This document shows positions 1,587-42,374 of a DNA stretch of 64,000 bases, piece by piece. The stretch comes from Escherichia coli (GTDB lineage Bacteria; Pseudomonadota; Gammaproteobacteria; Enterobacterales; Enterobacteriaceae), in NCBI RefSeq assembly GCF_030384885.1, contig NZ_CP128613.1. The stretch is one strand, 5' to 3'. The stretch's first letter is position 1. Each line of letters opens with the position of its first letter. A program made the translations under genes and the position numbers. Below the pieces are notes generated by a model. It searched no databases. It was not told the DNA's origin and worked only from the letters and a program-made list of their open reading frames with translations.

Positions 1587-1594
1587 CACGAACA

Positions 1595-1619: not shown

Positions 1620-1823
1620 CTGAGGATAATCCGTTAAATATGTAAAATCCTGTCAGTGTAATAAAGAGTTCGTAATTGCGCTGATCTCTTATATAGCTGC
1701 TCTCATTATCTCTCTACCCTGAAGTGACTCTCTCACCTGTAAAAATAATATCTCACAGGCTTAATGGTTTCTTAATACAAAGCCTGTAAAACATCAGGAT
1801 AACTTCAGAGGTCGTCGGTATTT

Positions 1824-2858
1824 ATGATGAACAGCACCAATAAACTCAGTGTTATTATCCCGTTATATAATGCGGGAGATGATTTCCGTACTTGCATGGA
1901 ATCTTTAATCGCGCAAACCTGGACTGCTCTGGAAATCATTATTATTAACGATGGTTCAACGGATAATTCTGTTGAAATAGCAAAGCATTACGCGGAAAAC
2001 TATCCGCACGTTCGTTTGCTGCATCAGGCGAATGCCGGCGCATCGGTGGCGCGTAATCGTGGGATCGAGGCGGCGACGGGTAAATATGTCGCTTTTGTCG
2101 ATGCTGACGATGAGGTCTATCCCACTATGTACGAAACGCTGATGACCATGGCGTTAGAGGACGACCTCGACGTGGCGCAGTGCAACGCTGACTGGTGTTT
2201 TCGTGAAACGGGAGAAACCTGGCAATCCATCCCCAGCGATCGCCTTCGCTCAACCGGCGTATTAACCGGCCCTGATTGGTTGCGGATGGGGCTTTCTTCC
2301 CGCCGTTGGACTCATGTTGTCTGGATGGGGGTTTATCGTCGTGATGTCATTGTTAAAAATAACATTAAATTTATTGCCGGATTACATCATCAGGATATTG
2401 TCTGGACAACAGAATTTATGTTTAACGCGCAACGCGTGCGATATACCGAGCAATCGTTATATAAATATTATTTGCATAATACGTCAGTGAGCCGATTGAA
2501 TAGACAGGGAAATAAAAACCTTAATTATCAACGCCACTATATTAAGATTACCCGACTGTTGGAAAAGTTAAATCGCGATTACGCAGACAGAATAGTGATT
2601 TACCCGGAATTTCATCAACAAATAACTTACGAAGCATTACGTGTTTGCCATGCGGTACGTAAAGAGCCAGATATTATTACCCGCCAACGGATGATTGCTG
2701 AGATATTTACTTCCGGTATGTATAAGCGCCTGATTTCCAATGTACGCAGCATAAAGGTGGGTTATCAGGCGTTACTGTGGTCTTTCCGCTTATGGCAATG
2801 GCGCGACAAAACGCGGTCGCACCATCGCATTACGCGTAGCGCCTTTAATTTGCGCTAG
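1824..2858 (+). CDS. waaH: Family 2 glycosyltransferase (LPS core modification)
   Basis: 344 aa ORF; N-terminal SVIIPLYNAGDD... and DADD motifs typical of GT2; position next to tdh matches K-12 waaH (yibD). Confidence 0.85.
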   Translation: MMNSTNKLSVIIPLYNAGDDFRTCMESLIAQTWTALEIIIINDGSTDNSVEIAKHYAENYPHVRLLHQANAGASVARNRGIEAATGKYVAFVDADDEVYPTMYETLMTMALEDDLDVAQCNADWCFRETGETWQSIPSDRLRSTGVLTGPDWLRMGLSSRRWTHVVWMGVYRRDVIVKNNIKFIAGLHHQDIVWTTEFMFNAQRVRYTEQSLYKYYLHNTSVSRLNRQGNKNLNYQRHYIKITRLLEKLNRDYADRIVIYPEFHQQITYEALRVCHAVRKEPDIITRQRMIAEIFTSGMYKRLISNVRSIKVGYQALLWSFRLWQWRDKTRSHHRITRSAFNLR

Positions 2859-3804
2859 CGTTAAGTTTTGCCGCTTCGGGCTGCTTGCCCCAGCCTTGCC
2901 ACTGATGCTGGAAGTAAACGATCAGCGTGCTCTGGCTGATGCTTTCGCTTAATACTTCAAAGAAGCGATTAGCATAAACCGGTTCCAGCGGTTTCTTCGG
3001 TTTACACAGTTTCACGCCACGGAACGGATTATGCGGTGCATCAGGCACAGCGTTTTTCGGCGGTGTAGAAGTATCAACCTGCGGTTCATTCAGCAAGCTG
3101 CTGGCTTTCACCAGTGTAATGTCTGGCGGCAGGTTATAAACCATCTGTTGCAACACGCGTACCGTTGAAGGGTGAGGATGCCCAATGGCAATGGTCGAAC
3201 CGTTGCGACGCGCCAGGTCAATTGCACGATTAAACTGCACACGGATGTCTGCTTCGTTCTGTGAATCGTCGAGAAACACCTTCCGTTTAATAACCTTCAC
3301 GCCAGTGCCTTGCGCGGCGCGCATCGCCTGGGTATTACCGATGGTTACGCTGTCGAGGAAGTAAAGATTGTAACGCGCCAGTGCCTGCATCACTTTCTGC
3401 ATGCCAAACAGGTTAGAGGTCATCTTGCTACCCATGTGGTTGTTGATCCCCACGGCATAGGGCACGTTATTGACCGCACTACGAATAATGCGCTCAATTT
3501 CGTCGCTGCTCATCTCCGGGCGCAGCGTATTTTTCTCCAGCGGCTGTTTACTCAACGGTGCCATTGGCAGATGAATCAACACTTCGTGACCGCTGTTATG
3601 CGCTTTGGTCGCCATCTCTCTGGCGTGCGGTGAATCGGGTAATACAGCGACGGAGATAGCGGAAGGCATCGCCAGCACCTGGTTTTCGTTGTGCGGGCGA
3701 TACCCAAAATCATCAATGACGATGGCAAGTTTGCCAGCAAGTACAGGGGAGGAGAGCGCCAACAGAGCGGCAAATGCAAGAACGTTACGACGAAATGGAA
3801 ACAA
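2845..3804 (-). CDS. yibQ: Divergent polysaccharide deacetylase family protein
   Basis: 319 aa ORF with N-terminal signal peptide (MFPFRRNVLAFAALLALSSPVLA); same size and position as K-12 yibQ, upstream of envC. Confidence 0.85.
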   Translation of the reverse strand: MFPFRRNVLAFAALLALSSPVLAGKLAIVIDDFGYRPHNENQVLAMPSAISVAVLPDSPHAREMATKAHNSGHEVLIHLPMAPLSKQPLEKNTLRPEMSSDEIERIIRSAVNNVPYAVGINNHMGSKMTSNLFGMQKVMQALARYNLYFLDSVTIGNTQAMRAAQGTGVKVIKRKVFLDDSQNEADIRVQFNRAIDLARRNGSTIAIGHPHPSTVRVLQQMVYNLPPDITLVKASSLLNEPQVDTSTPPKNAVPDAPHNPFRGVKLCKPKKPLEPVYANRFFEVLSESISQSTLIVYFQHQWQGWGKQPEAAKLNASAN

Positions 3805-3807
3805 AAC

Positions 3808-5067
3808 TTATCTTCCCAACCACGGCTGTGGATTGACCGCCTGACCCTGGCGGCGAATTTCGAAATAGAGTGAAGGCCGACCCTGACCGCCACTGCTGCC
3901 CACCAGTGCAATTGGCTGGCCCGCGCGAACCTGCGAACCAACGCTCACCAGTGCGCTCTGATTATAGCCGTAAAGACTCATGTCGCCTTTACCATGCTCA
4001 ACCACCACCACCAGACCGTAGCCTTGCAGCCAGTCAGCCAGAATCACCCGACCGTCGGCAATCGCTTTAACTTCAGTACCTTCAGAAGCACCAATCACCA
4101 TCCCTTTCCAGCGCAGCTCACCCTGTAGCTGTTCACCATAGCGATGCAGCGTCGGCCCGCGAACCGGCCAGAATGCCTGACCACGCGGCGCGCCCAGGCC
4201 ACCAGTTCGGGACATCAGCGATTTTTCGCTTTCGGTCGGTTTGTAGGTGGTGCCTTTGCGCGTCGCTTCTTTCTGACGGTCGCGAACCGCCTGGGCTTCG
4301 CGCGCCTCACGTTCAGCACGCGCTTTCGCTGCCGCTTCCGCACGGGCAATGCTGTTACGCAGACGAGATTCGTTGGCGCGCAGCTCGCTCAACTGTTGTT
4401 GACCTTGCTGGATGGAAGACTCTAGCCCAGCCAGCGTCTTTTTACGCTCGTTCAGCGCCTGGGTCAGCTTCGCCTGTTGGGCGCGCTGCTCATATAACAG
4501 TGTTTGTTGCTCGCTCTGTTTCTCTTCCAGCTCGGCGCGTTGCATAGCGACTTCTTCACGCGTTTGTTTCAACTGAGCAATGGTTTCTTGTCGCGCCTGG
4601 TTGAGATAACCGAAATAAGCCTGTAAACGCTGACCACGCTGGCTTTCTTCACCGCTGAGAATGAGCTGAATACCGGTATGCTCGCCCTGACGAAACGCGG
4701 CATCCAGTTGCGCGGCGAGGCTGCGTTCCTGGGCGGCTTTTTGCTGCTCCAGTTTGGCAATCGATGCGTTCATCTCATCAATCTGTTTATTCAGTTGATT
4801 GAGTGTGTTTTGCGTTTCGCGCAGCTTGCGAGTGGCTTCAGAGATCGCTTCTTCCTGCTTTTTCAATTGTGCGAGCAGGCTTGCGCGTTGTTGTTGCTTT
4901 TGGCGTACCGCGCGCTCTTTCGCGGCGATATCGGCCTGAATAGATTTGAGTTGGTCGCGATCATCCGCGTGGGCGGAAAAGGCGCACAACAATACGCCAG
5001 CGCTAAGAACGCTGGCGTAGATGATAGGCCTGATTGCAAACCTGCGCGGTTTCACGGCCCGTGTCAT
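3808..5067 (-). CDS. envC: Murein hydrolase activator EnvC (coiled-coil plus LytM/M23 domain)
   Basis: Long Q/A/E-rich coiled-coil followed by a C-terminal M23-like domain; start placed at the internal ATG (MTRAVKPRRF..., 419 aa) rather than the ORF-track start. Confidence 0.9.
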   Translation of the reverse strand: MTRAVKPRRFAIRPIIYASVLSAGVLLCAFSAHADDRDQLKSIQADIAAKERAVRQKQQQRASLLAQLKKQEEAISEATRKLRETQNTLNQLNKQIDEMNASIAKLEQQKAAQERSLAAQLDAAFRQGEHTGIQLILSGEESQRGQRLQAYFGYLNQARQETIAQLKQTREEVAMQRAELEEKQSEQQTLLYEQRAQQAKLTQALNERKKTLAGLESSIQQGQQQLSELRANESRLRNSIARAEAAAKARAEREAREAQAVRDRQKEATRKGTTYKPTESEKSLMSRTGGLGAPRGQAFWPVRGPTLHRYGEQLQGELRWKGMVIGASEGTEVKAIADGRVILADWLQGYGLVVVVEHGKGDMSLYGYNQSALVSVGSQVRAGQPIALVGSSGGQGRPSLYFEIRRQGQAVNPQPWLGR

Positions 5068-5100
5068 GGTATTAATCGCCTTTCCCCTCATGGGGAGGGA

Positions 5101-6645
5101 TTATTCCACGATGAACAGCGGCTTACCAGTCATCTCTTGCGGGATTTCCATACCCATCAGCGACAACATGGTCGGCGCGATGTCAGAAAGTTTGCCGCCT
5201 TCAACCGCTTTCACGTTCTTATCGCCAACGTAAATCAGCGGAACAGGCAGGTTGGTGTGCGCTGTGTGCGCCTGACCCGTTGCCGGATCGCGCATCTGTT
5301 CAGCGTTACCGTGGTCAGCGGTGATCAGCAGTTGTCCACCTACAGACTCAACCGCTTTCGCAACTTCATCCACGCAGTGATCCAGCGCTTCAACGGCTTT
5401 AACCGCTGCTTCCATCACCCCGGTGTGACCTACCATGTCGCCGTTAGGATAGTTACAGATGATAGTGTCGTATTTGCCGCTCTTGATGGCCGCAACCAGT
5501 TTTTCGGTCAGCTCTGCGGAGCTCATTTCCGGTTGCAGGTCGTAAGTAGCGACTTTCGGTGAGTTGATCAGAATGCGATCTTCGCCTTTGAACGACTCTT
5601 CTACGCCACCGTTGAAGAAGAAAGTGACGTGGGCATATTTTTCGGTTTCGGAAATACGCAGCTGAGTTTTGTCGTTTTTCGCCATCCACTCGCCGAAGGT
5701 GTTAACCAGAGAAGCTGGCGGGTAAGCAACCGCAGTTTTGATGTCAGCAGCGTATTCGGTCAGCATCACGAAATCGATGTTAACTACTTTCTTACGCGCG
5801 AAGCCGTCGAAATCAGCGTTCACGAAAGCACGAGTGATTTCACGCGCGCGGTCAGCACGGAAGTTCATGAAAATCAGCGCGTCGCCGTCTTCCATTGCCG
5901 CGTCTGGCTGGCCTTCAGCACGGATAACGGTCGCTTTCACGAATTCGTCGTTTTCGTCGCGAGCATAAGCAGCCTGCAAACCGGCAACAGCGGTGTCGGC
6001 CTGGAATTCGCCCTGCGCCAGCGTCAGCAGGTCATACGCTTTTTCAACGCGATCCCAACGATTGTCGCGGTCCATGGCGTAGTAACGACCAATGATGGAC
6101 GCTACGCGGCCTTTGCCCAGCGCGGCAAATTTCTCTTCGAATTTTTTCAGCGAGGATTCAGCACTGCGCGGCGGGGTGTCGCGACCGTCAAGGAATGCGT
6201 GCAGGTAGATTTTTTCTGCGCCGCGTTCCGCTGCCAGTTCTACCATCGCCATGATGTGATCTTCGTGGCTGTGTACACCACCTGCGGACAGCAGACCCAT
6301 AATGTGTACTGCTTTGCCCGCATTTTTCGCTTTATCTACCGCACCAGTCAGCACCGGATTAGCGAAGAAAGCGCGATCTTTGATTTCAACGTCCAGACGA
6401 GTCAGGTCCTGATACACGATGCGGCCGGCACCCAGGTTAACGTGGCCTACTTCGGAGTTACCCATTTGACGGTCAGGCAGACCGACTTCCAGACCGGAAG
6501 CGTCGATCAGGGTATGCGGACGATTGGCCCACAGTGCATCCATTACCGGGGTTTTAGCACTAAAAATGGCGTTATCCTGCTGTTCTTCGCGATAGCCATA
6601 GCCATCCAGAATCACCAGTACCATAGGTTTTTTAGAAACCGACAT
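5101..6645 (-). CDS. gpmM: 2,3-bisphosphoglycerate-independent phosphoglycerate mutase
   Basis: Start placed at [17 protein letters not shown] (514 aa), with a GAGG Shine-Dalgarno 8 nt upstream; the 562 aa track ORF is an upstream in-frame extension. Confidence 0.95.
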
Positions 6646-6889
6646 TGCGACAACCTCATACTCAAGAGTCAAAATTTGCGTAATTTTACTACAGCTGAAT
6701 CGATAAAATAGCCTCTGAAGATCAAAATATACGACCGCTCGCGGCAAGCCGATGCCAGATTTACGCTTTTTTTTCGTAGCGCCCCGCAAAATTGCATTCC
6801 AGTTAACGCGCTGGCTGTATTTGCCGCACCGCGCAGGTATACTCCTTTCCTGGTTTTTTTAATCACTACGTCGGGAGTTGTTACCCCCC

Positions 6890-7321
6890 ATGCAAGAAAT
6901 TATGCAATTTGTTGGCCGTCATCCCATACTGAGTATCGCCTGGATCGCGTTACTGGTGGCGGTTCTTGTGACTACGTTTAAGAGCCTGACCTCGAAAGTG
7001 AAGGTGATTACTCGTGGTGAAGCTACACGTCTGATCAACAAAGAAGACGCTGTGGTTGTGGATTTACGTCAGCGTGATGACTTCCGTAAAGGCCATATCG
7101 CAGGTTCTATCAATCTGTTGCCGAGCGAAATCAAAGCCAATAATGTTGGTGAGCTTGAGAAGCACAAAGACAAGCCGGTTATCGTGGTAGACGGTTCTGG
7201 CATGCAGTGCCAGGAGCCTGCAAACGCGCTGACGAAAGCAGGTTTTGCGCAAGTATTCGTGCTGAAAGAGGGCGTAGCTGGCTGGGCTGGCGAGAACTTG
7301 CCCCTGGTGCGCGGCAAATAA
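6890..7321 (+). CDS. yibN: Rhodanese-domain inner membrane protein
   Basis: 143 aa from ATG at 6890 ([26 protein letters not shown]..., one TM helix then rhodanese-like domain); GGGAG Shine-Dalgarno upstream; the track start at 6878 is a TTG. Confidence 0.85.
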
Positions 7322-26436: not shown

Positions 26437-26799
26437 ATGTTTCTAAACTATTTCGCGTTGGGAGTGCTGATCTTCGTCTTTCTGGTGATTTTTTATGGAA
26501 TCATCGCGATACATGACATCCCTTATCTGATTGCCAAAAAGCGCAATCACCCCCATGCCGACGCTATTCATACGGCGGGCTGGGTGAGCCTGTTTACTCT
26601 GCATGTTATCTGGCCGTTCCTGTGGATCTGGGCGACGCTCTATCAACCGGAGCGTGGCTGGGGTATGCAGTCACATGTTGCGTCGCAGGAGAAAGCGACT
26701 GACCCGGAAATCGCCGCACTTTCTGACCGAATTTCCCGGCTGGAGCATCAACTCGCCGCCGAGAAAAAGACTGACTATTCCACGTTCCCGGAGATCTAA
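26437..26799 (+). CDS. yibI: DUF3302-family inner membrane protein
   Basis: 120 aa; [45 protein letters not shown]...; about 90 percent identical over the first 80 aa to the second copy at 40909 (yiaW). Confidence 0.85.
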
Positions 26800-26801
26800 A
26801 T

Positions 26802-27938
26802 ATGGATCTATTGATTGTTTTAACTTACGTGGCGCTGGCGTGGGCGGTCTTTAAAATCTTCCGCATTCCGGTAAATCAGTGGACGCTGGCGACGGCGGCG
26901 CTGGGAGGCGTGTTTCTGGTGAGTGGTTTGATTTTGTTGATGAACTACAACCACCCTTACACTTTTACCGCACAGAAAGCGGTGATTGCTATTCCCATCA
27001 CGCCACAGGTGACGGGGATCGTGACTGAAGTCACTGACAAGAATAATCAGCTTATTCAGAAGGGCGAGGTGCTTTTTAAGCTCGACCCGGTACGTTATCA
27101 GGCGCGAGTCGACAGGCTTCAGGCTGACCTGATGACGGCGACGCATAATATAAAGACACTGCGCGCGCAGCTCACTGAAGCGCAAGCCAATACCACCCAG
27201 GTTTCAGCGGAGCGTGACCGCTTGTTTAAAAATTATCAACGTTACCTGAAAGGCAGCCAGGCGGCGGTAAATCCGTTCTCGGAACGTGACATCGACGATG
27301 CGCGGCAAAACTTCCTCGCGCAGGATGCGCTGGTGAAAGGTTCGGTGGCGGAACAGGCGCAAATCCAGAGCCAGCTCGACAGTATGGTTAACGGTGAGCA
27401 GTCGCAGATTGTCAGCTTAAGGGCGCAGCTTACTGAAGCAAAATATAACCTTGAGCAGACCGTCATTCGCGCGCCGAGCAATGGCTACGTTACTCAGGTA
27501 CTGATCCGCCCAGGTACATACGCAGCTGCCTTGCCGCTACGTCCGGTGATGGTTTTCATCCCCGAGCAAAAACGGCAAATTGTCGCCCAATTTCGGCAGA
27601 ACTCGCTGTTACGTCTGAAACCCGGCGATGATGCGGAAGTGGTGTTTAACGCGCTACCTGGGCAGGTGTTCCACGGCAAACTGACTAGTATTTTACCTGT
27701 CGTGCCAGGCGGTTCGTATCAGGCGCAGGGGGTACTGCAATCATTAACGGTCGTACCCGGCACGGACGGTGTGCTGGGAACCATCGAACTGGACCCTAAC
27801 GATGATATCGATGCCTTACCCGACGGCATCTACGCCCAGGTGGCAGTTTACTCCGACCATTTCAGCCATGTTTCGGTGATGCGGAAGGTGCTGCTAAGAA
27901 TGACCAGTTGGATGCATTATCTTTATTTGGATCATTGA
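26802..27938 (+). CDS. yibH: HlyD-family membrane fusion protein
   Basis: 378 aa; N-terminal TM helix, coiled-coil and barrel-sandwich regions; paralogue of the ORF at 41238 (yiaV). Confidence 0.85.
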
Positions 27939-28395: not shown

Positions 28396-28917
28396 TTATT
28401 CATCGATGCATTTTATAGAATCATCAATGGCTACAATAGTACTATTAACTCTCCAATTTATATTTTTATTATCATTGCAAATATTAACTGAATCTATATC
28501 AATGATTTTTCTATTTTTATCTTTTATTTTATTTACAGTTTCAATGCAATCAGCGACAAGTTGGTGTGGATTTAGATTCTTCAGATATGGTCTTATGATC
28601 TTTCCCTTGCTTAATAAATAGCATGTATAGGATTCGGAAAGTCCAGCATCTATTTTGTACATCATTATTCTAGATAAGGATGTGAGAAATGCCTTGTTAT
28701 CATTAGCAGCCATATATGCCAGTCCGAGTTCAGCCTCTGCGGCTTTACATGAAAAATAGCTAAATGAACACGCTTTTCGTCCCTCTTGGGTACTGGCTGA
28801 TATTAGTGCCCATAATATTGCCTTGTCTGCCAAATCCAACTCTCTCTGAAATTGGTTTACAGTAACTGCATTCGCAGAAATAGAGAAAAAAAGCACAATT
28901 GTTAATAACCTTGCCAT
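28396..28917 (-). CDS. Secreted or periplasmic protein; candidate immunity protein for the orphan Rhs C-terminal toxin
   Basis: 173 aa with cleavable signal peptide (MARLLTIVLFFSISANA); its start codon lies 4 nt after the stop of the orphan rhs-CT ORF, same strand. Confidence 0.45.
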   Translation of the reverse strand: MARLLTIVLFFSISANAVTVNQFQRELDLADKAILWALISASTQEGRKACSFSYFSCKAAEAELGLAYMAANDNKAFLTSLSRIMMYKIDAGLSESYTCYLLSKGKIIRPYLKNLNPHQLVADCIETVNKIKDKNRKIIDIDSVNICNDNKNINWRVNSTIVAIDDSIKCIDE

Positions 28918-28921
28918 ATTT

Positions 28922-30334
28922 CTAGTCCGTCACTGTTAATGTGCTATCTGGCTCTGAAAATATTAGCCCATTTAATTTTTGCATGTCATTAGATGAACCA
29001 GTTATACAACCCTCGGAACAGAATCGAGGTCCTAAAGATGGACCAAAAGCGTTTAAACAACTATGTGTTAAAAATCCATCACGATTATACGTTTCTGTAT
29101 TTGCTGACGGTACTAAACGTATACCATTAGGTTTTCTATTAGTTGCTCCAGGACCATTAACATTCCAGGTCCATACCCCTTGAGGTATTGGGCCTCTATT
29201 TTGTAAGTGTGTACAACCAGGATTATTTTTACATTGCATATTATTACCATTATTACCAGAGGCGACTGAAATAGTAAGCACACCATAAGAATTATCATCA
29301 CTTGGCGTATCTGAAACGCATGAAAGCATACCTAAAGTTATGCTGTATAAACAGGTCGCTAATCCCAACGGGTCAATATCAGTTATCGGATTCAACGGAT
29401 ACTGATAAAAATTCCATCCCCCCTTCAGCCCAATCGGATCCTGAGTGATATACCGCCCCTGCAGCGGGTCATAATAGCGGTGGCGGTTGTAATACAGGCC
29501 GGACTCCTCATCATACTGCTGACCCGGCAGGCGGATGAGCTGCTGCAGCTGGTGCGGGTTCTCTTCATTCAGCAGGTTGCCCCATTCATCATATTCTGCG
29601 TACCACGCTGTTGCCCCTTCCGTGCTGACAAGCGCCAGCGGCAGGCCGCGATGGTCGCAGTGGTACAGGTGGATTTTTCGCGCCGGCGTGTACACCGGGT
29701 CCATCTGGTTTTGCATCTGCTCCACCGTCAGGCCGCACGATGCCAGCCAGCGGCGGCTTTCCTCACTCACCCGGTCAGCCAGGATTTCACTTTCCAGCCG
29801 GTCGAGCATCTGCACCAGCACCGGCGGGAACACCACATGGCCTCCGTCTTCGCCGCCGGACTGCTGAAGGGCATCCGCCAGGCTGCGGCGCTGCGTTTTC
29901 GCCAGCTCACCGGTGGCGGTTTCGACCCTGATGAGTGGCGTGAAACTTCCCGGCAGGTATACCGTCTGGATGCGGGTTCTGTCGTTCTGTATCGTGGTCA
30001 GCCGGTCGCCATCCCAGCCGTACCAGGTCACTTCCGGTTTCCTTGACAGCGACATCCAGCCCGTCAGGTCCCGTTCACGCCGCCACACCCGTTTTGCCAC
30101 CCTGCGGCCCAGCGGGTCGTAAAGATAGCGACTTTCGACCAGCGGCTCTGCATATTGTGTCCGCGTGTAGTGCACCAGCCGGTGCCGGCTGTCGTAATGG
30201 TACCGGTGAGTCCGCTCATCATCCGTGCGGATAACCCCTTCCGGGATGAGGTCGGTTTTCTCCGTCAGCCTGCCGTGACGGTCATACCGGTAAAGATAGT
30301 GCGCGTCACGGGCGATACGGTTATCCGGCCACAT
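28922..30334 (-). CDS. Orphan rhs 3' fragment: distal Rhs core followed by an alternative C-terminal toxin domain
   Basis: 470 aa; the first ~325 aa are nearly identical to the distal core of the rhs gene at 30774-32915 up to the DPxGL boundary ([30 protein letters not shown]); the remaining ~145 aa are unrelated to the main gene. Confidence 0.75.
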
Positions 30335-30410
30335 GCTGAGGGTGCTGTCCGGGTGCAGCTCCGGGTCGGGCAGGCGGTTACCTGCCGGGTCTGTTGCATA
30401 CGGGATATCA
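29386..30410. repeat. Direct repeat copy A (~1.0 kb) of the rhs distal core
   Basis: Identical spurious plus-strand ORFs in the track at 29480 and 31347 (also 29535/31402, 29740/31607, 29913/31780, 30043/31910) give a constant 1867-bp offset; homology ends where the DPxGL-encoding sequence ends. Confidence 0.85.
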
Positions 30411-30447: not shown

Positions 30448-30774
30448 TTATTTATTTATAATGCGCTTACTTAATACAAACCATTGAATATACCCTCCTG
30501 ACAGAAAATAAAGCCATATTATTATCGCCATAATATACTTGCTATCAATTCTTACGCCAATAATGTCTGAAATACTCCCTATAAATATTAGAGCAATAAA
30601 GAATACTATGCCTGTTGGAAAACATATTACCATCATTCCATAAGACATGAGACTAATTAACTCGCTCACATCACGAGTGGAGTCTAATAGTGAAAGTCTA
30701 TGCATGGAAAAGAATAGCATTAAAAGTGATAACGCCAGCCATATAGCTCTGAATGAAAAAATAATATATTTCAT
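30448..30774 (-). CDS. Small three-helix membrane protein; candidate immunity protein for the main Rhs C-terminal toxin
   Basis: 108 aa, three hydrophobic segments; start codon overlaps the rhs stop by 1 nt (TAATG), same strand. Confidence 0.45.
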
Positions 30775-32915
30775 TACATCACTCCGGTGAATACAAATCT
30801 AATAAAACGTCCAATGTTATTTCCGGAGCACTTCATCTTACATGTTTCTAAAGAATCATTAGACCAGTCTTGGCAGTTTTTAAATAGCCCTAAATTTATA
30901 GGTGTGAATATATCAGGCAATACAGAATAACGCGGCCTTACCTCTTTAAATTTCCCTTTTAAACAGTTCTCCACACAACTATTATCGGTTTCAACGAGGT
31001 CACAACGGCCAGCAGCTTCTTTTGTATCATTACTTGCTTTACCTGGCCCCCATAGACCATCTCCTTTTGATTCTCCCCGTTGGTCTTGGCCACCACAAGT
31101 ATAGTCCCCTTTACCATCTGGGACACAAAGATATTGATGATAGAACGGATTCCCCCATATATCTGGACCGCTTCTTTCACCAGTTCCGCCCATTGAATGC
31201 AGTGGCTTAATGCATTTTAGTGTTTCTAATCCTAATGGATCTATATTTGAGATCGGATTCAACGGATACTGATAAAAATTCCATCCCCCCTTCAGCCCAA
31301 TCGGATCCTGAGTGATATACCGCCCCTGCAGCGGGTCATAATAGCGGTGGCGGTTGTAATACAGGCCGGACTCCTCATCATACTGCTGACCCGGCAGGCG
31401 GATGAGCTGCTGCAGCTGGTGCGGGTTCTCTTCATTCAGCAGGTTGCCCCATTCATCATATTCTGCGTACCACGCTGTTGCCCCTTCCGTGCTGACAAGC
31501 GCCAGCGGCAGGCCGCGATGGTCGCAGTGGTACAGGTGGATTTTTCGCGCCGGCGTGTACACCGGGTCCATCTGGTTTTGCATCTGCTCCACCGTCAGGC
31601 CGCACGATGCCAGCCAGCGGCGGCTTTCCTCACTCACCCGGTCAGCCAGGATTTCACTTTCCAGCCGGTCGAGCATCTGCACCAGCACCGGCGGGAACAC
31701 CACATGGCCTCCGTCTTCGCCGCCGGACTGCTGAAGGGCATCCGCCAGGCTGCGGCGCTGCGTTTTCGCCAGCTCACCGGTGGCGGTTTCGACCCTGATG
31801 AGTGGCGTGAAACTTCCCGGCAGGTATACCGTCTGGATGCGGGTTCTGTCGTTCTGTATCGTGGTCAGCCGGTCGCCATCCCAGCCGTACCAGGTCACTT
31901 CCGGTTTCCTTGACAGCGACATCCAGCCCGTCAGGTCCCGTTCACGCCGCCACACCCGTTTTGCCACCCTGCGGCCCAGCGGGTCGTAAAGATAGCGACT
32001 TTCGACCAGCGGCTCTGCATATTGTGTCCGCGTGTAGTGCACCAGCCGGTGCCGGCTGTCGTAATGGTACCGGTGAGTCCGCTCATCATCCGTGCGGATA
32101 ACCCCTTCCGGGATGAGGTCGGTTTTCTCCGTCAGCCTGCCGTGACGGTCATACCGGTAAAGATAGTGCGCGTCACGTGTTATACGGTTATCCGGCCACA
32201 TGCTGAGGGTGCTGTCCGGGTGCAGCTCCGGGTCAGGCAGGCGGTTACCTGCCGGGTCCGTGGCATACGGGATGCGGATATCCAGATTTGAGGTGGTGGT
32301 GTGGACGCCGGTCAGCCTGCCGGTGGTGCTGTAGCTGTAACTCCGGGTCTGGCGCGGGCTGCTGATGCGGATGAGTTCGCCGTTGTCGTTCCAGGTGTAA
32401 TCGCGGTCATACTGCAGGCTGTTCAGGTGCTGGCTCTGTAACTGCCCGGCAGGGGTATAAGCGGTGGTGAGTTCATAACGGCCGAAGCTGCGCAGCGTTT
32501 CCCGGTGCAGGCGGTCGCGGGTGAAATCCACCAGCGGTGTGTCGCCGAGTTTCATCCCTGCCAGGTAACCACTGCCATAAGTCAGCCATTCCACGGCGGG
32601 CAGGCTGTCCGGTATACAGCGGTTCGCCAGCCCCTGCGCGTTGTACGCATGTCTGGTTTCATGCTGCCAGAGCAGTTCATTCGTCTGCGGGTGATGCACC
32701 GTCTGGCGCTCACCGGTCAGGGCAAGGTCGGTTTCGCCGGGAAGGACCTTTGCACCGAGCAACGGATTGACCGGATGACCGGACGTCACCCCGCCGGGGC
32801 ACACCGAACAGGCCACGCTGGTGGGGGCACCAATACGTACCCCGGCTGAACCCTGAACAATGCTACCGCCATACTGCGTCATGTCGCCCTGACGCGCCGC
32901 CGGTTTTCCGCTCAT
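30774..32915 (-). CDS. Rhs-family polymorphic toxin, short form: PAAR-type N-terminus, distal YD-repeat core, DPxGL boundary, cysteine-rich C-terminal domain
   Basis: 713 aa; [22 protein letters not shown]... (literal PAAR motif); YD repeats ([46 protein letters not shown]); conserved core end PxxxxDPxGL; AAGGA Shine-Dalgarno before the ATG at 32915. Confidence 0.8.
31253..32277. repeat. Direct repeat copy B (~1.0 kb) of the rhs distal core
   Basis: Partner of 29386-30410; see that entry. Confidence 0.85.
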
Positions 32916-33143
32916 CTGCTCATCCTTGTTTTATCGGGTTATTTGTCTGCTGACAGGCGAAACCCTACAGATTTATAAGAAAGCCTTAAGTGAGATATCT
33001 GTCAGATAAGAACAATTAGGAAAATATTTATATCACCATGATAAATATGTGATTTATTGGGAGGTAACAAACCATCAACATTTTCTGCCCTTTTTCCCAT
33101 CACCAGGCCATACTGATATTTTTCCTCGCACAAAGGACTCGGC

Positions 33144-33752
33144 ATGAAACTCGTCGGTAGCTACACCAGCCCGTTTGTACGCAAACTTTCTATTCTGTTG
33201 TTAGAAAAGGGCATAACTTTCGAATTTATTAATGAACTGCCCTATAACGCGGACAACGGCGTGGCGCAATTTAACCCGTTAGGGAAAGTGCCGGTGCTGG
33301 TGACTGAAGAGGGCGAATGTTGGTTTGATTCGCCGATCATCGCTGAATATATTGAATTAATGAATGTCGCTCCGGCGATGTTGCCGCGCGATCCGCTGGA
33401 GTCGTTGCGAGTGCGCAAAATTGAGGCGCTGGCGGATGGCATTATGGATGCCGGGCTGGTATCGGTGCGTGAACAGGCACGTCCGGCGGCGCAGCAGTCT
33501 GAAGATGAATTGTTACGCCAGCGGGAGAAAATCAACCGCAGTCTGGATGTGCTGGAAGGATATCTGGTCGATGGCACGCTCAAAACCGATATGGTCAACC
33601 TGGCGACTATCGCCATTGCCTGTGCCGTCGGATATCTCAATTTCCGCCGCGTTGCGCCAGGCTGGTGTGTCGACCGCCCACACTTAGTCAAACTGGTCGA
33701 AAACCTGTTTAGCCGCGAAAGTTTTGCCCGCACCGAACCGCCAAAGGCTTGA
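33144..33752 (+). CDS. yibF: Glutathione S-transferase family protein
   Basis: 202 aa; GST N- and C-terminal domain layout; divergent from the rhs gene. Confidence 0.9.
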
Positions 33753-33849
33753 TGCGCGATATGTCCTCCTGACCCATCTCACGTTACAATCCGTGGTTAT
33801 GTTAAACGCCCTTCTCCGTGTGAGAGGGCCTTGATCAACCAGGTTTCCT

Positions 33850-35241
33850 ATGACAACCGAAACGCGTTCCCTCTATAGTCAACTTCCGGCTATTGATCGC
33901 TTATTGCGCGATAGCTCTTTCCTTTCTTTGCGTGATACCTATGGTCACACCCGCGTGGTGGAGTTGCTGCGTCAGATGCTTGACGAAGCGCGAGAAGTGA
34001 TTCGTGACAACCAGACGCTGCCCGCATGGTGTGAAAACTGGGCGCAAGAAGTCGATGCCCGGCTGACGAAGGAGGCGCAGAGCGCGCTGCGTCCGGTGAT
34101 CAACCTGACGGGAACCGTGCTGCATACCAATCTTGGGCGAGCTTTACAGGCAGAAGCCGCGGTGGAAGCCGTTGCGCAGGCTATGCGTTCGCCAGTGACC
34201 CTCGAGTACGATCTGGACGACGCCGGACGCGGACATCGCGATCGGGCGCTGGCACAGCTGCTGTGCCGCATTACGGGGGCGGAAGATGCCTGTATCGTTA
34301 ATAACAATGCGGCGGCGGTATTGTTGATGTTGGCGGCCACTGCCAGTGGGAAAGAGGTGGTGGTATCTCGCGGCGAACTGGTGGAGATTGGCGGCGCGTT
34401 TCGTATTCCTGATGTCATGCGTCAGGCAGGCTGCACCCTACACGAAGTGGGGACCACCAATCGCACGCACGCTAATGATTATCGCCAGGCGGTGAATGAA
34501 AATACCGCTCTGTTGATGAAAGTACATACCAGTAACTACAGCATTCAGGGGTTCACCAAAGCGATAGATGAAGCTGAACTGGTGGCGCTCGGCAAAGAGC
34601 TGGATGTTCCAGTGGTGACGGATTTAGGCAGTGGCTCGCTAGTCGATCTTAGCCAGTACGGTTTGCCGAAAGAGCCAATGCCGCAGGAGTTGATTGCGGC
34701 GGGCGTCAGTCTGGTGAGCTTCTCCGGCGACAAGCTGTTAGGCGGGCCGCAGGCAGGAATTATTGTTGGTAAAAAAGAGATGATCGCCCGCCTGCAAAGC
34801 CATCCACTGAAGCGTGCATTACGCGCGGATAAAATGACCCTCGCGGCGCTGGAAGCCACGTTGCGTCTTTATTTACACCCTGAGGCGCTGAGTGAAAAAT
34901 TACCGACCCTGCGTCTGCTTACCCGCAGCGCAGAGGTCATTCAAATCCAGGCACAACGTTTACAGGCCCCCCTTGCCGCACATTACGGCGCGGAGTTCGC
35001 GGTACAGGTTATGCCATGTCTTTCGCAGATTGGCAGTGGTTCGCTGCCGGTTGATCGCCTGCCGAGCGCGGCATTAACGTTTACACCCCATGATGGACGC
35101 GGTAGCCACCTTGAGTCATTAGCCGCCCGCTGGCGTGAATTGCCAGTGCCGGTGATTGGTCGTATTTATGACGGACGATTGTGGCTGGATTTACGCTGCC
35201 TTGAAGATGAGCAACGGTTTTTGGAGATGTTGTTGAAATGA
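33850..35241 (+). CDS. selA: L-seryl-tRNA(Sec) selenium transferase
   Basis: 463 aa; recognised as SelA; overlaps the selB start. Confidence 0.95.
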
Positions 35242-37082
35242 TTATTGCGACTGCCGGACACGTTGACCACGGCAAAACAACCTTATTGCAGGCGATTACT
35301 GGCGTAAATGCCGACCGTCTGCCGGAAGAAAAAAAGCGCGGTATGACCATCGATCTCGGCTATGCCTACTGGCCGCAGTCAGATGGTCGCGTGCCTGGTT
35401 TTATCGACGTTCCCGGCCATGAAAAATTTCTTTCCAACATGCTGGCGGGCGTCGGGGGAATCGATCACGCGCTGTTGGTGGTGGCGTGCGATGACGGCGT
35501 GATGGCACAGACTCGTGAGCATCTGGCGATTTTGCAGCTGACCGGTAACCCGATGCTGACAGTGGCGCTGACCAAAGCCGATCGCGTGGACGAAGCGCGT
35601 GTTGATGAGGTTGAACGCCAGGTAAAGGAGGTGCTGCGGGAATACGGTTTTGCTGAGGCAAAACTGTTTATCACCGCAGCAACCGAAGGCCGGGGAATTG
35701 ATGCCCTGCGCGAGCATCTGCTTCAGTTACCAGAACGTGAACACGCCAGCCAACATAGCTTCCGCCTCGCTATCGACCGTGCTTTTACCGTAAAAGGTGC
35801 CGGGCTGGTCGTCACCGGTACGGCGTTAAGTGGGGAAGTGAAGGTAGGCGATTCACTCTGGCTGACTGGTGTAAATAAACCGATGCGCGTGCGTGCGCTA
35901 CATGCGCAAAATCAGCCAACAGAAACTGCCCATGCCGGGCAGCGTATCGCGCTTAACATCGCGGGTGATGCGGAAAAAGAGCAGATTAACCGTGGCGACT
36001 GGCTGCTTGCCGATGCGCCGCCGGAGCCGTTCACACGGGTGATTGTCGAGCTTCAAACCCATACACCGCTGACCCAGTGGCAGCCGCTGCATATTCACCA
36101 CGCCGCCAGCCACGTCACGGGACGCGTTTCGCTGCTGGAAGATAACCTTGCCGAGTTGGTGTTCGACACGCCGCTGTGGCTGGCAGATAACGATCGCTTA
36201 GTGCTACGCGATATCTCGGCCCGCAACACGCTGGCGGGGGCGCGCGTGGTGATGCTTAACCCGCCGCGTCGCGGTAAACGTAAGCCGGAATATCTGCAAT
36301 GGCTGGCGTCTCTTGCACAGGCGCAGAGCGATGCCGATGCGTTAGCTATTCATCTGGAACGCGGAGCGGTTAACCTTGCTGATTTCGCCTGGGCGCGCCA
36401 GCTCAACGGCGAAGGGATGCGTGAACTGCTGCAGCAACCGGGCTATATTCAGGCCGGTTATAGCTTGTTGAATGCGCCGGTTGCCGCTCGTTGGCAGCGT
36501 AAAATTCTCGATACCCTGGCGACTTATCATGAGCAGCATCGCGATGAACCAGGTCCTGGGCGCGAGCGTCTGCGGCGCATGGCGTTGCCAATGGAAGATG
36601 AAGCGCTGGTGCTGTTGCTGATTGAAAAGATGCGCGAAAGCGGCGACATCCTCAGTCATCACGGTTGGCTGCATCTGCCGGATCATAAAGCGGGATTCAG
36701 CGAAGAGCAGCAGGCTATCTGGCAAAAAGCGGAGCCGCTGTTTGGTGACGAGCCGTGGTGGGTGCGTGACCTGGCAAAAGAGACGGGAACCGACGAGCAG
36801 GCAATGCGTTTGACGCTACGCCAGGCGGCCCAACAGGGGATAATTACCGCGATCGTTAAAGATCGTTATTACCGTAACGATCGGATTGTCGAGTTTGCCA
36901 ATATGATCCGCGATCTCGATCAGGAATGTGGTTCAACCTGCGCGGCGGATTTCCGCGATCGCTTAGGTGTAGGCCGAAAGCTGGCAATTCAAATTCTGGA
37001 ATATTTTGACCGTATTGGCTTTACGCGTCGCCGTGGAAATGATCATTTATTGCGCGACGCATTATTATTTCCCGAAAAATAA
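35238..37082 (+). CDS. selB: Selenocysteine-specific translation elongation factor
   Basis: 614 aa; GTPase P-loop [11 protein letters not shown] at the N-terminus; winged-helix C-terminal extension. Confidence 0.95.
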
Positions 37083-37271
37083 GGGAACGATTAATTCATA
37101 ATAAATATGAATTAATACAAAGTTCTTATTAATGTTAAGGAAGCACGTTATTTGATGAATGTAACGTGCTTTTTATTAAAAATATTTTAATAAACGGTAA
37201 TGTTGATCATATTTTCAAATGAAAATCCTCAGTAAGCTGCCCGCCCTTTTTTACACTTTCAGGAGTGTGTT

Positions 37272-38423
37272 ATGGCAGCTTCAACCTTTTTTATTCCTTC
37301 CGTGAATGTTATTGGTGCTGATTCATTGAATGATGCAATGAATATGATGGCAGATTATGGATTTACCCGTACCTTAATTGTCACCGACAATATGTTAACG
37401 AAATTGGGTATGGCGGGTGATGTGCAAAAAGCACTGGAAGAACGCAATATTTTTAGCGTTATTTATGATGGCACCCAACCTAACCCCACCACGGAAAACG
37501 TCGCTGCAGGTTTGAAATTACTTAAAGAAAATAATTGCGATAGCGTAATCTCCCTGGGCGGTGGTTCTCCGCACGACTGTGCAAAAGGTATTGCGCTGGT
37601 TGCAGCCAACGGCGGTGACATCCGCGATTATGAAGGCGTTGACCGCTCTGCAAAACCGCAGTTGCCGATGATCGCCATCAACACCACGGCGGGTACGGCA
37701 TCAGAAATGACCCGTTTTTGCATCATCACCGATGAAGCACGTCACATCAAAATGGCGATTGTGGATAAGCACGTCACTCCGCTGCTTTCTGTCAATGACT
37801 CCTCGCTGATGATCGGTATGCCGAAGTCACTGACCGCTGCAACGGGTATGGATGCCTTAACGCACGCTATCGAAGCGTATGTGTCTATTGCCGCCACGCC
37901 GATCACCGACGCTTGCGCACTGAAAGCGGTGACTATGATTGCTGAAAACCTGCCCTTAGCCGTTGAAGATGGCAGCAATGAGAAAGCGCGCGAAGCAATG
38001 GCTTACGCTCAGTTCCTCGCGGGTATGGCGTTCAACAATGCGTCTCTGGGTTATGTTCATGCGATGGCGCACCAGCTGGGCGGTTTCTACAACCTGCCAC
38101 ACGGTGTATGTAATGCTGTTCTGCTGCCACACGTTCAGGTGTTCAACAGCAAAGTCGCTGCTGCACGTTTGCGTGACTGCGCTGCTGCGATGGGTGTTAA
38201 CGTGACAGGTAAAAACGATGCGGAAGGTGCAGAAGCCTGCATCAATGCCATCCGTGAACTGGCGAAGAAAGTGAATATCCCGGCAGGCTTGCGTGACCTG
38301 AACGTGAAAGAAGAAGATTTCGCGGTACTGGCGACCAATGCCCTGAAAGATGCCTGCGGCTTTACTAACCCGATTCAGGCAACTCACGAAGAAATTGTGG
38401 CGATTTATCGCGCGGCGATGTAA
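37272..38423 (+). CDS. yiaY: Iron-containing (group III) alcohol dehydrogenase
   Basis: 383 aa; Fe-ADH motifs (GGGSPHD, histidine-rich metal site). Confidence 0.9.
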
Positions 38424-38623
38424 TCATCATTCCCATAATGGCTGGCTAATTGTCAGCCATTTTTTCAACTCTCTCAAAATTTGCGATTTTTGAGAGAGTT
38501 TTAGTTATCTCTGTAATCCTTGCCCGTAAATTCGTGATAGCCGTCGTAAAGCTATCACCAGCTGGCGAAGATTTCGCCAGTCACGTCTACCCTTGTTATA
38601 CCTCACACCGCAAGGAGACGATC

Positions 38624-40747: not shown

Positions 40748-40908
40748 TATTTCAATATGATAAACCTCGACCTGTTGAAAAGCCAGGTAGCACACTTCAG
40801 AAAGTATATAAAAAACAATATGTCGTTATATAAATAAGGAAATTGCACTGCATCATGGCATTTCATAATATGCGTTAATTGTTCTTTTTTATATTCTCTG
40901 AGGGAAAT

Positions 40909-41232
40909 ATGTTCCTGGACTATTTTGCACTGGGAGTGCTTATTTTTGTATTTCTGGTGATATTCTATGGGATTATTATTTTACATGATATTCCCTACCT
41001 GATTGCTAAAAAACGTAATCATCCTCATGCCGACGCCATTCATGTTGCTGGTTGGGTGAGTCTTTTTACGCTGCATGTTATCTGGCCATTTTTGTGGATT
41101 TGGGCCACGCTTTACCGCCCGGAGCGGGGATGGGGAATGCAAAACTATGACTCCTCCGTTGTGCAACTACAACAGCGTATTGCCGGGCTGGAGAAACAGC
41201 TCGCCGACATCAAATCCTCTTCTGCCGAGTAA
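40909..41232 (+). CDS. yiaW: DUF3302-family inner membrane protein
   Basis: 107 aa from ATG at 40909, with GAGGGA Shine-Dalgarno; close paralogue of yibI. Confidence 0.8.
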
Positions 41233-41237
41233 TACTT

Positions 41238-42374
41238 ATGGATTTACTGATTATTTTGACCTATGTGGCTTTCGCATGGGCAATGTTTAAGATCTTCAAA
41301 ATTCCTGTAAATAAATGGACCATTCCCACCGCGGCCCTGGGTGGCATATTTATTGTCAGCGGTCTAATTCTGTTAATGAACTATAACCATCCGTATACCT
41401 TTAAAGCGCAAAAAGCGGTTATTTCTATTCCTGTTGTCCCGCAGGTGACAGGCGTGGTGATCGAAGTGACGGACAAGAAAAATACGCTGATTAAAAAAGG
41501 TGAGGTGCTATTTCGACTGGACCCGACGCGTTATCAGGCGCGGGTGGATCGGCTGATGGCGGATATCGTTACCGCAGAACATAAACAGCGGGCGTTGGGC
41601 GCAGAGTTAGATGAGATGGCGGCGAATACTCAGCAGGCAAAGGCCACGCGGGATAAATTCGCTAAAGAGTACCAGCGTTACGCACGCGGCAGCCAGGCGA
41701 AAGTAAACCCGTTTTCAGAACGCGATATTGATGTGGCGCGGCAAAATTATCTGGCGCAGGAAGCCTCCGTAAAGTCATCGGCGGCGGAACAAAAACAGAT
41801 CCAGAGCCAGCTGGATAGCCTGGTGTTGGGTGAACATTCTCAAATCGCCAGCCTGAAAGCGCAGCTCGCGGAAGCAAAATATAACCTTGAGCAGACGATA
41901 GTGCGTGCGCCGAGCGATGGTTATGTGACCCAAGTGCTGATTCGTCCGGGTACCTATGCCGCATCGCTGCCGCTACGTCCTGTGATGGTGTTTATACCCG
42001 ATCAGAAACGACAAATTGTGGCGCAGTTCCGTCAGAACTCCTTGCTGCGACTGGCTCCCGGCGATGATGCGGAAGTGGTGTTTAATGCTCTGCCAGGTAA
42101 GGTATTCAGCGGTAAGCTGGCAGCCATTAGTCCAGCTGTTCCCGGCGGAGCTTATCAGTCGACCGGCACCTTACAGACGTTAAACACAGCACCGGGTTCA
42201 GATGGCGTTATAGCGACCATTGAACTGGATGAGCACACTGAGTTGAGCGCTTTACCAGACGGTATTTACGCCCAGGTGGCGGTTTACTCTGATCATTTCA
42301 GCCATGTCTCGGTGATGCGCAAAGTGCTGTTACGCATGACCAGTTGGGTGCATTACCTTTATCTCGATCATTAA
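41238..42374 (+). CDS. yiaV: HlyD-family membrane fusion protein
   Basis: 378 aa; paralogue of yibH, same domain layout. Confidence 0.85.

Follow-up and report, generated by a model that had tools for sequence, protein, structure and literature searches.

A half-length rhs gene at the Escherichia coli rhsA locus: a probable recent deletion allele with a recurring junction

Gene content of the rhs element

The window, a 64,000-nt stretch of an Escherichia coli genome, carries an rhs element at the rhsA locus, in the interval between yibF and yibH. The first gene of the element, adjoining yibF, is an uninterrupted 713-aa open reading frame (ORF) with an ATG start, read from the ORF list and its translation; it is followed by a ybfB-like gene, an orphan rhs fragment and an Imm57 immunity gene. 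The features discussed below are as follows (evidence in brackets):

30774..32915, minus strand: truncated main rhs gene, 713 aa, equivalent to the 1,397-aa EC26-type protein minus residues 66-749 (ORF; comparison with EC26 and 2013C-4282; RHS_core)
32775..32915, minus strand: residues 1-47, short PAAR-like N-terminal fragment (alignment to Tse5 and RhsA)
32721..32774, minus strand: residues 48-65, first 18 residues of the N-terminal plug, DUF6531 (parent DUF6531, residues 46-123)
32713..32721, minus strand: deletion junction, CCTGACCGG on the coding strand (crossover within CCTG; A from the right-hand copy)
31557..32720, minus strand: residues 66-453, distal YD-repeat beta-shell with a helical insert at 379-448 (RHS_core positions 758 onward; AlphaFold2)
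31227..31556, minus strand: residues 454-563, C-terminal plug, comprising the Rhs-associated core and aspartyl protease (TIGR03696; Pfam RHS, PF03527)
30774..31226, minus strand: residues 564-713 and stop codon, RhsC-type C-terminal toxin domain (identity to rhsC-named genes)
31226..32273, minus strand: main-gene copy of a 1,048-bp direct repeat, with the orphan copy at 29359-30406 (blastn against EC26)
30448..30774, minus strand: ybfB-like gene, 108 aa, hydrophobic (ORF; K-12 and EC26 rhsC-ybfB arrangement)
28922..30334, minus strand: orphan rhs fragment, a 470-aa ORF with distal core and Tlde1-domain C-terminal toxin (RHS_core 937-1261)
28396..28917, minus strand: gene for a 173-aa "Imm57 family immunity protein" (PGAP name of EC26 WP_000113245.1)

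A first-pass annotation had described the main rhs gene as about half the normal length, and the comparison with full-size references agrees: 713 aa, against 1,377 aa for K-12 RhsA (4,134 nt) and 1,397 aa for K-12 RhsC (4,194 nt). The N-terminal and distal-core protein sequence that it gave is found in the translation. The NCBIfam RHS_core profile (NF041261) matches the protein in two stretches, the better of which places residues 66-563 on profile positions 758-1261 of 1,261, and about 690 profile positions are absent; with 1,174.7 bits against a curated cut-off of 2,000, the protein does not qualify as a full-length match.

The start of ybfB overlaps the rhs stop codon by one base, as in the rhsC-ybfB pairs of K-12 and EC26, and from its position ybfB is presumed to be the cognate immunity gene of the 713-aa rhs toxin. 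The toxin of the orphan fragment matches the Pfam Tlde1_dom family (E = 4.6e-6), and the Imm57 gene belongs with this orphan toxin, although the 173-aa product has no NCBIfam or PADLOC match; across the window, PADLOC families for anti-phage defence gave zero matches. The two copies of the direct repeat are 98.7% alike, and the endpoints of the deletion described below lie outside the repeat. In E. coli 2013C-4282, the main toxin and ybfB have been lost through recombination between the two copies.

The deletion and its junction

The window is colinear with the genome of E. coli EC26 over all 64 kb, and the sequences flanking the rhs deletion align to EC26 without gaps, at 99.97% identity upstream (6,957 nt) and 99.86% downstream (10,948 nt). 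Both EC26 and 2013C-4282 exceed 99.8% identity on either flank and have a full-length gene at the locus, which in EC26 encodes a 1,397-aa product (WP_039268489.1, NZ_CP060880.1). The window shares with these two strains the locus, promoter, N-terminus, distal core, toxin, ybfB, orphan fragment and Imm57 gene, and differs from them in lacking codons 66-749; this loss of 2,052 bp (684 codons) is the sole structural difference from EC26 at the locus. The window protein equals EC26 residues 1-65 joined to 750-1397, bar five substitutions in a polymorphic patch. This 158-nt patch lies just 3' of the junction and differs from EC26 at 15 positions, yet it matches 2013C-4282, with which the five substituted residues agree 100% at the DNA level. 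Hence, what had been noted as an apparent in-frame internal deletion is a single clean loss, mapped to the base against both strains, and the proposed alignment to full-length rhs identifies the missing residues as 66-749 of the EC26 protein. All 11 of the E. coli genomes closest to the window (identity of 99% or more) lack the deletion, and we therefore judge it to be recent.

The parent sites read CCTG/CCCGG on the left and CCTG/ACCGG on the right, and the product reads CCTG/ACCGG (a slash marks the join). The left copy encodes D-L-A-L/P-G in the N-terminal plug and the right copy G-R-L/T-G in a YD repeat, and the two CCTG(C/A)CCGG copies are in phase. Microhomology, which the first-pass annotation had suggested looking for, amounts to four exact base pairs (CCTG), or 8 of 9 over CCTG(C/A)CCGG. 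Within the gene, 181 pairs of perfect 9-mers and exact repeats as long as 14 nt went unused; as the microhomology that was used is weak, simple slippage does not fully account for the choice of sites. Extended homology or repeat collapse at the endpoints was ruled out by an in-register identity of 25-26% over ±40 to 150 nt, extended similarity being absent. Restriction-like cutting at CCGG followed by ligation was likewise ruled out, since the junction has the right-hand A instead of the left-hand C. DNA folding of ±50 nt around the endpoints gave z-scores of +1.3 to -1.9 and no convincing hairpin, and the literature yielded nothing specific on internal-deletion hot spots in rhs. Illegitimate, short-homology recombination between the two in-phase copies removed the 684 codons and left the promoter, start codon, reading frame, C-terminal toxin and overlapping immunity gene untouched.

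Recurrence of the junction and reuse of breakpoints

The identical junction, GCCCTG/ACCGGTGAGCG, with the same 2,052-bp loss at the same locus, is present in the complete genome of strain CP8-3_Sichuan (HP430_RS20160, NZ_CP053736.1), where PGAP annotates the allele as a pseudogene "missing N-terminus". The exact 693-aa CP8-3 product (P0270) is encoded by three contigs in NCBI records; L130, the one of these that was examined, comes from a draft assembly and carries the junction. The background of the CP8-3 allele is K-12 rhsA, with an Ntox34 toxin and yibA immunity, and is about 4-5% diverged from the window. CP8-3 matches K-12 without a difference for 3,381 nt before the junction and 926 nt after it, and the window shows no difference from its own relatives as far as the junction. 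Mismatches between the two backgrounds at -9, -7 and +12 nt limit the shared identical tract to at most 17 nt. On these sequence comparisons, the CP8-3 junction is an event independent of that in the window. A single ancient deletion allele, passed between lineages by homologous recombination, would also give base-identical junctions in the two genomes, and rhs cores are indeed mosaic, as the 158-nt patch illustrates. However, we consider such a history very improbable, given that the identical tract around the junction is far below the requirement for homologous recombination, that each allele is 100% identical to its own full-length relatives right to the junction on both sides, and that in other strains the right-hand site has four further left partners.

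About 20 short rhs alleles in complete genomes are clean internal deletions with reused breakpoints. Six independent events among 20 alleles end at the right-hand site of the window deletion, a tally that carries ascertainment bias because the queries began at that site. The deletion allele is restricted to single strains or small clades. We propose that rhs cores have a few preferred breakpoints, with the site pair used in the window among them, and that this led to the recurrence of the junction in a K-12-like rhsA.

These alleles also bear on the suspicion that the short form is an assembly or sequencing artefact, in which a full-length gene has lost 2 kb by collapse. Genes of the rhs family are repetitive, and assemblies frequently break there; moreover, the exact 713-aa protein is absent from a collection of 15 billion proteins (exact-sequence look-up), and no other genome among 5,426 has the junction in the background of the window. 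Nonetheless, the endpoints have four exact bases (8 of 9) in common without extended homology, whereas assemblers collapse long repeats rather than 9-mers, and the deleted segment is found nowhere else in the window. The identical junction recurs in the complete CP8-3_Sichuan genome and in the L130 draft, alongside the roughly 20 comparable deletions in complete genomes. Judged from the assemblies, collapse is an unlikely source of the short form, and we regard an artefact of any kind as scarcely credible.

A word-indexed protein search with the junction-spanning N-terminus exposed further junction types; it covers cluster representatives and short fragments only and gives no carrier count, and deletion alleles are hidden inside 90% clusters of full-length proteins. 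We considered and rejected a conserved natural Rhs architecture of about 700 aa: representatives of that length are orphan or contig-edge fragments, with core sequence upstream of position 750 and without a PAAR-like start. Metagenome scans gave zero matches to the specific 29-mer junction, and only chance matches in unrelated GC-rich contigs to a 17-mer.

Consequences for toxin caging and export

The closest solved Rhs structure is that of Tse5 from Pseudomonas aeruginosa (PDB 8cp6), which shares with the window protein a short PAAR-like N-terminal fragment and a cleavage site before a conserved P-V-N-P. Tse5 is cleaved at K47/P48, and its plug spans residues 48-124 (PMC10684867); the N-terminal cleavage point of RhsA is H304/P305 (PMC8765631). 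P48 of the window protein aligns with residue 1 of the Tse5 shell chain, its "HPV" aligns with RhsA H304/P305, and N-terminal autoproteolysis is predicted at H47/P48, at the end of the PAAR-like fragment. The layout of the N-terminus matches the 47-aa "PAAR-like" Tse5-NT by alignment, and the Pfam PAAR_motif match (residues 2-20) is non-significant (E = 0.36). The label "PAAR region" in the first-pass annotation thus fits only loosely: by alignment, the 65 retained residues comprise a PAAR-like fragment of 47 aa and 18 residues of the plug. DUF6531 spans parent residues 46-123 and is undetected by Pfam in the window protein; about 58 residues, three quarters of the N-terminal plug, have been deleted.

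Beyond the cleavage site, Tse5 continues with a DUF6531 plug, a YD barrel and a DPxG...DPxG protease plug. Its 40-hairpin barrel and its plug are complete, whereas the window protein retains 18 residues of the plug and about the distal 40% of the barrel, the first 60% or so being gone. Most of the YD-repeat shell had been suspected to be missing; indeed, of the 13 significant Pfam RHS_repeat matches in the parent, 11 fall completely within residues 66-749, another crosses their right-hand boundary and one survives. YD repeats are still detectable (TIGR01643, 26.7 bits against a cut-off of 15.8; one Pfam RHS_repeat, E = 4.9e-4). The Rhs-associated core is retained at residues 486-563 (TIGR03696, 86.3 bits against a cut-off of 32.5), and residues 454-563 align to the C-terminal plugs of 8cp6, 7q97 and 7pq5. 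The DPxG protease motif described for Rhs (PMC10684867) is present as DPxG-X18-DPxG in near-invariant columns (D537-P-I-G, X18, D559-P-L-G-L563), and the core ends in PxxxxDPxGL followed by the variable toxin. Cleavage is predicted after L563, and C-terminal self-cleavage of the protein may persist; if so, free toxin would be released inside the producer, where ybfB would stay useful. The toxin domain (564-713) is cysteine-rich and 99% identical to the C-terminus of rhsC-named genes in EC26 and other strains, with no Pfam or NCBIfam family match.

Structure prediction of the remaining YD shell, another check suggested at the outset, returned a partial shell only. In the AlphaFold2 model, pLDDT is mostly 80-96 over residues ~70-530 and below 50 for residues 1-47 and for the toxin. 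The confident part covers about a third of solved Rhs cocoons, with Foldseek target TM-scores of 0.24-0.32 among the best matches. In Tse5, the plug and inner-wall residues 326-363 keep the N-terminal fragment in place (PMC10684867). As the N-terminal plug is gone, together with the first ~60% of the barrel and the stretch of inner wall to which the N-terminal fragment is anchored, we infer by analogy with homologues that the 713-aa protein cannot form a closed cage. AlphaFold2 predictions have suggested that incomplete Rhs containers are unable to envelop their toxin (Kielkopf et al. 2024 bioRxiv), and TseI is no longer secreted once its Rhs core has been deleted, although its toxin still acts inside cells (PMC7170923). 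Most likely, a type VI secretion system (T6SS) can neither load nor export the window protein, and the gene is most likely a nascent pseudogene. The ORF is free of further inactivating mutations, which says little against decay since a recent deletion would look alike. The annotation of the colinear EC26 stretch lists no vgrG, eag or T6SS genes within these 64 kb.

The window protein resembles "incomplete" Rhs proteins and orphans in having a partial container (Kielkopf et al. 2024 bioRxiv; Jackson et al. 2009), and both are tied to the dynamics of rhs loci. However, orphans lack the N-terminus and promoter and derive from C-terminal displacement, whereas the window gene derives from an internal deletion, stands first in the element and keeps its native start, N-terminus, ribosome-binding region and upstream DNA. 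Like the window protein, TcC of ABC (Tc) toxins is a single chain made up of RHS shell (~500-680 residues), aspartyl-protease plug and C-terminal toxin; the sequence identity is only 13-15%. TcC is completed by TcB, whereas the window has no complementing half: the deleted segment and any other rhs N-terminal half are absent, and only the orphan distal fragment is present.

We consider it probable that the gene is a recent, strain-specific deletion allele of a full-length Rhs toxin gene, an export-dead nascent pseudogene whose junction recurs independently. Its product would comprise the 47-aa PAAR-like fragment, 18 plug residues, the last ~40% of the beta-shell, the aspartyl-protease plug and a 150-aa toxin, and the partial shell would leave the cage open, such that loading and export by type VI secretion fail. 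An alternative is that the allele lacking residues 66-749 is retained as a functional, selected "mini-Rhs", a self-cleaving half-cage with protease plug and toxin that is exported, works as a TcC-like unit or acts inside the cell as a ybfB-dependent toxin-immunity (addiction) module, and that it came from a deletion process with a preference for TG/NCCGG-type sites in rhs cores. In its favour, the allele has an intact frame and start, and its PAAR-like fragment, protease motif, toxin and immunity gene are likewise intact; the same in-frame junction originated at least twice, and TcC proteins (Foldseek matches to TcB-TcC and YenBC) indicate that an incomplete RHS shell can be a working unit when it carries plug and toxin. 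Salmonella Rhs orphans reportedly behave as toxin-antitoxin-like modules (PMC7043789). Nevertheless, TcC requires TcB to complete its cage and no partner lies in the window, carriers of the allele are limited to single strains or small clades, and removal of the core abolished TseI secretion. Furthermore, many sister alleles with the same breakpoints are out of frame (L132, L133/L134, L137, L139 and L142), which argues that breakpoint reuse reflects mutation rather than selection for the product. We view a selected short form as improbable.

The gene is a deletion derivative of a known Rhs toxin, and likely a pseudogene, rather than a member of a new class of short toxins. For annotation, the immunity gene and the orphan module keep their meaning beside the truncated rhs gene. 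More broadly, E. coli Rhs core genes are repeatedly shortened by clean internal deletions at a few reused breakpoints, a modest but real observation. If these breakpoints are a true mutational hot spot, they would provide strains with a recurrent way to disarm an Rhs toxin while keeping immunity, and would offer a simple natural system for short-homology deletion in vivo. The recurrence of breakpoints in unrelated strains is the unexpected part of this locus, the remainder being ordinary gene decay.

Deletion in the main rhs gene

The main rhs gene (window 30774-32915, minus strand) is a single unbroken ORF of 713 codons whose translation runs from an N-terminal ...LPGETDLAL straight into the distal core, as the first-pass annotation had read it; the gene's length, described there as about half that of a normal Rhs protein, compares with 1,377 aa for RhsA and 1,397 aa for RhsC in K-12. 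The neighbouring genes are those of the classical E. coli rhsA locus, with aldB, yiaY, selB, selA and yibF on one flank and yibH, yibI, mtlA, mtlD and mtlR on the other, and the intact ORF has its native upstream region and an overlapping, presumed immunity gene (ybfB). The product's match to the NCBIfam RHS element core model is confined to residues 66-563, equivalent to profile positions 758-1261 of 1,261, and the score of 1,175 bits is below the cut-off of 2,000.

Among 5,426 complete E. coli genomes searched by megablast, none gave a continuous match to the whole gene. Eleven records matched at at least 99% identity, the match covering bases 195-2142 in the nine of 11 that were listed. In strain EC26, the matching bases make up the distal part of a gene of 4,194 nt that is called rhsC and sits at the yibF locus, where the order rhsC, ybfB, orphan (a displaced rhs C-terminal fragment) and Imm57 immunity gene is the architecture of the window. 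EC26 and the window are colinear across all 64 kb, with 2 mismatches in 6,957 nt upstream of the gene, 15 in 10,948 nt downstream, and no gaps on either side; beyond mismatches, the sole difference at the locus is 2,052 bp absent from the window. All 15 downstream mismatches fall within a 158-nt patch beside the junction (window 32524-32681, ~9.5% divergence). Over this patch the window matches a full-length gene in another close relative, 2013C-4282, at 100% identity; it is ordinary, gene-conversion-like allelic mosaicism inside an otherwise identical 11 kb. Removing residues 66-749 from the EC26 protein reproduces the window protein save for five residues in the patch, bearing out the in-frame internal deletion proposed earlier. 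The deleted DNA was not found elsewhere in the 64-kb window.

Sequences at the deletion junction (a slash marks the breakpoint)
Parent (full-length EC26-type gene), left: ...GACCTTGCCCTG/CCCGGCCCG...
Parent, right: ...AAAGGCCGCCTG/ACCGGTGAG...
Window, 32713-32721: ...GACCTTGCCCTGACCGGTGAG...

Microhomology, which the first-pass annotation had proposed looking for, is present as four exact bases (CCTG), or eight of nine over CCTG(C/A)CCGG. The endpoints are otherwise unrelated (in-register identity of 25-26% over ±40 to 150 nt), and the junction bears the signature of illegitimate short-homology recombination. Repeat collapse by the assembler would not leave such a junction and is an unlikely cause; the 1,048-bp direct repeat common to the main gene and the orphan (window 29359-30406 and 31226-32273, 98.7% alike) sits elsewhere.

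Recurrence of the junction and reuse of breakpoints

A 651-nt query spanning the junction found the identical junction in one complete genome, that of CP8-3_Sichuan (CP8-3). Over 3,381 nt on the upstream side of the junction and 926 nt on the downstream side, this K-12-like strain shows no difference from MG1655 rhsA; it has lost 2,052 bp, equal to the window's loss, whereas its toxin (Ntox34) and immunity gene (yibA) both differ from those of the window. The window and CP8-3 are ~4-5% divergent overall, with differences at -9, -7 and +12 nt relative to the junction, and each matches its own full-length relatives perfectly as far as the breakpoint. A common origin of the junction would need recombination tracts ending inside a 17-nt island; judged from these sequences, independent origins in the window and CP8-3 are much more likely. 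The 693-aa CP8-3-type product occurs on three NCBI contigs, and the one contig inspected carries the junction, so a one-off assembly error does not account for it.

The adjoining yibF, selA, selB, yiaY and start of aldB (window 32713-38475; 1195-6957 of locus L005) are ~5% diverged from K-12-like strains. Across 5.8 kb of these yibF-aldB housekeeping genes, EC26 and CP8-3 are 94.9% identical. Core genes of E. coli seldom diverge this much, which suggests that the haplotype block beside rhs is imported or old.

We read 20 short rhs alleles, a small sample, at the yibF, ybfA (rhsC) and rpmE loci of genomes that are either complete or in draft.

Reused breakpoints among short rhs alleles (L-numbers are rhs loci from other genomes; a slash marks the breakpoint)
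Left, nt 198, ...CCCTG/CCCGG: window, CP8-3, L131, L146
Left, nt 395-399: L002, L132, L137, L143
Left, nt 576, GGGTG/CCGGA: L140, L142 (two different loci)
Left, nt 624/625, just before CTGACCGG: L145, L148
Left, nt 721, GGTG/CCGGG: L138, L149
Right, nt 2246-2251, ...CTG/ACCGGTGAGCG: window, CP8-3, L132, L133, L134/L135, L138
Right, nt 1382: L146, L148

The right-hand site of the window deletion pairs with five different left partners, and at five of the nine distinct left sites CCGG lies within the first ~9 deleted bases, where the background is 12% (post-hoc test). Reused sites serve in-frame and out-of-frame alleles alike, which points to mutation rather than selection for the product. The rhs gene contains 181 perfect 9-mer pairs and exact repeats of up to 14 nt, and only L144 among the junctions read used long exact homology (a 10-nt exact repeat); microhomology length alone does not explain site choice. 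DNA folding of ±50 nt gave no significant hairpin at the endpoints. In two discovery queries the distal part began at the right-hand site, and pieces more than 825 or 1,571 nt apart were not joined; detection was thus biased to nearby right ends, over hundreds of bases rather than eight. We found no description of rhs breakpoint reuse in the literature, and this reuse is the only part of the analysis that might repay further work.

Many of the reused breakpoints, which come from three different rhs loci (window; L001, L131-L149), follow the pattern TG/(N)CCGG. At the ybfA-rhsC locus (L138-L140, L143-L149), internally deleted main genes occur in many complete genomes; the one in strain YZ_2_1 is annotated as intact (3,636-nt CDS), the others as pseudogenes or as a short 'DUF6531' ORF plus a pseudogene.

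Protein parts lost and retained

Pfam places DUF6531 at residues 46-123 of the parent protein and finds 13 significant RHS repeats in it, of which 11 lie wholly within the deleted residues 66-749 and one straddles the right end. The window protein has no DUF6531 and a single significant repeat, in agreement with the earlier view that most of the YD-repeat shell is missing. Its closest solved structure is P. aeruginosa Tse5, in which residues 1-47 are a PAAR-like fragment required for secretion, residues 48-124 (DUF6531) are an N-terminal plug, and the N-terminal fragment is held by this plug and inner-wall residues 326-363 (PMC10684867). P48 of Tse5 (residue 1 of the shell chain) aligns with P48 of the E. 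coli protein, and H47-P48 of the latter aligns with the H304/P305 cleavage site of P. protegens RhsA. By these domain assignments and this alignment, the window protein retains the N-terminal fragment and 18 plug residues; the anchoring wall, the remainder of the plug and ~60% of the barrel are missing.

The C-terminal aspartyl-protease plug is present (TIGR03696, 86 bits), with its motif (D537-P-I-G, 18 residues, D559-P-L-G-L563), followed by a 150-residue RhsC-type toxin that has no family match in Pfam or NCBIfam. In an AlphaFold2 model based on 55 homologues, confidence is confined to residues ~70-530, with pLDDT below 50 in the N-terminal 64 residues and in residues 539-713. In Foldseek the model matches Rhs cocoons, with target TM-scores of only 0.24-0.32 among the best matches, which indicates a partial shell.

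We infer that the product cannot form a closed cage, and it is probably dead for delivery ('export-dead'). Three lines support this reading, one of them being the title of Donato et al. In earlier work, short Rhs proteins were modelled as containers that are incomplete and were viewed as recombination substrates that are not expressed. Without its Rhs core TseI is no longer secreted, and the toxin alone is still toxic in cells (PMC7170923). From these lines, and from the annotation of the same-junction CP8-3 allele as a pseudogene by the NCBI pipeline, we read the window gene as a probable nascent pseudogene for delivery. We speculate that, if the product were expressed and self-cleaving, toxin would be freed in the producer cell, and ybfB would then be worth keeping. 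The first-pass interpretation was right overall and the finding is real; the gene amounts to an ordinary deletion derivative within a known toxin family.

Orphan module and other features

In 2013C-4282 (locus L006), recombination between the copies of the 1,048-bp repeat removed the RhsC-type toxin and ybfB and left the orphan Tlde1 toxin fused to the full-length core. Together with the arrangements in the window and EC26, this shows three structural states of the rhs locus within one lineage. In the window's orphan module (28396-30334), the rhs fragment is an intact ORF of 470 aa that starts at its own ATG and includes a Tlde1-domain toxin; an Imm57-type gene comes after it. For the identical sequence in EC26, the PGAP annotation gives only a partial pseudogene. 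Elsewhere, a YadA-like adhesin gene contains a 213-bp tandem repeat (window 17475-18361; 4.2 copies, 95% matches), with one unit (71 codons) fewer than in EC26. Paralogous pairs of a DUF3302 gene and an HlyD-family gene, yibI-yibH (window 26437-27938) and yiaW-yiaV (window 40879-42374), flank the region with ~74% DNA identity.
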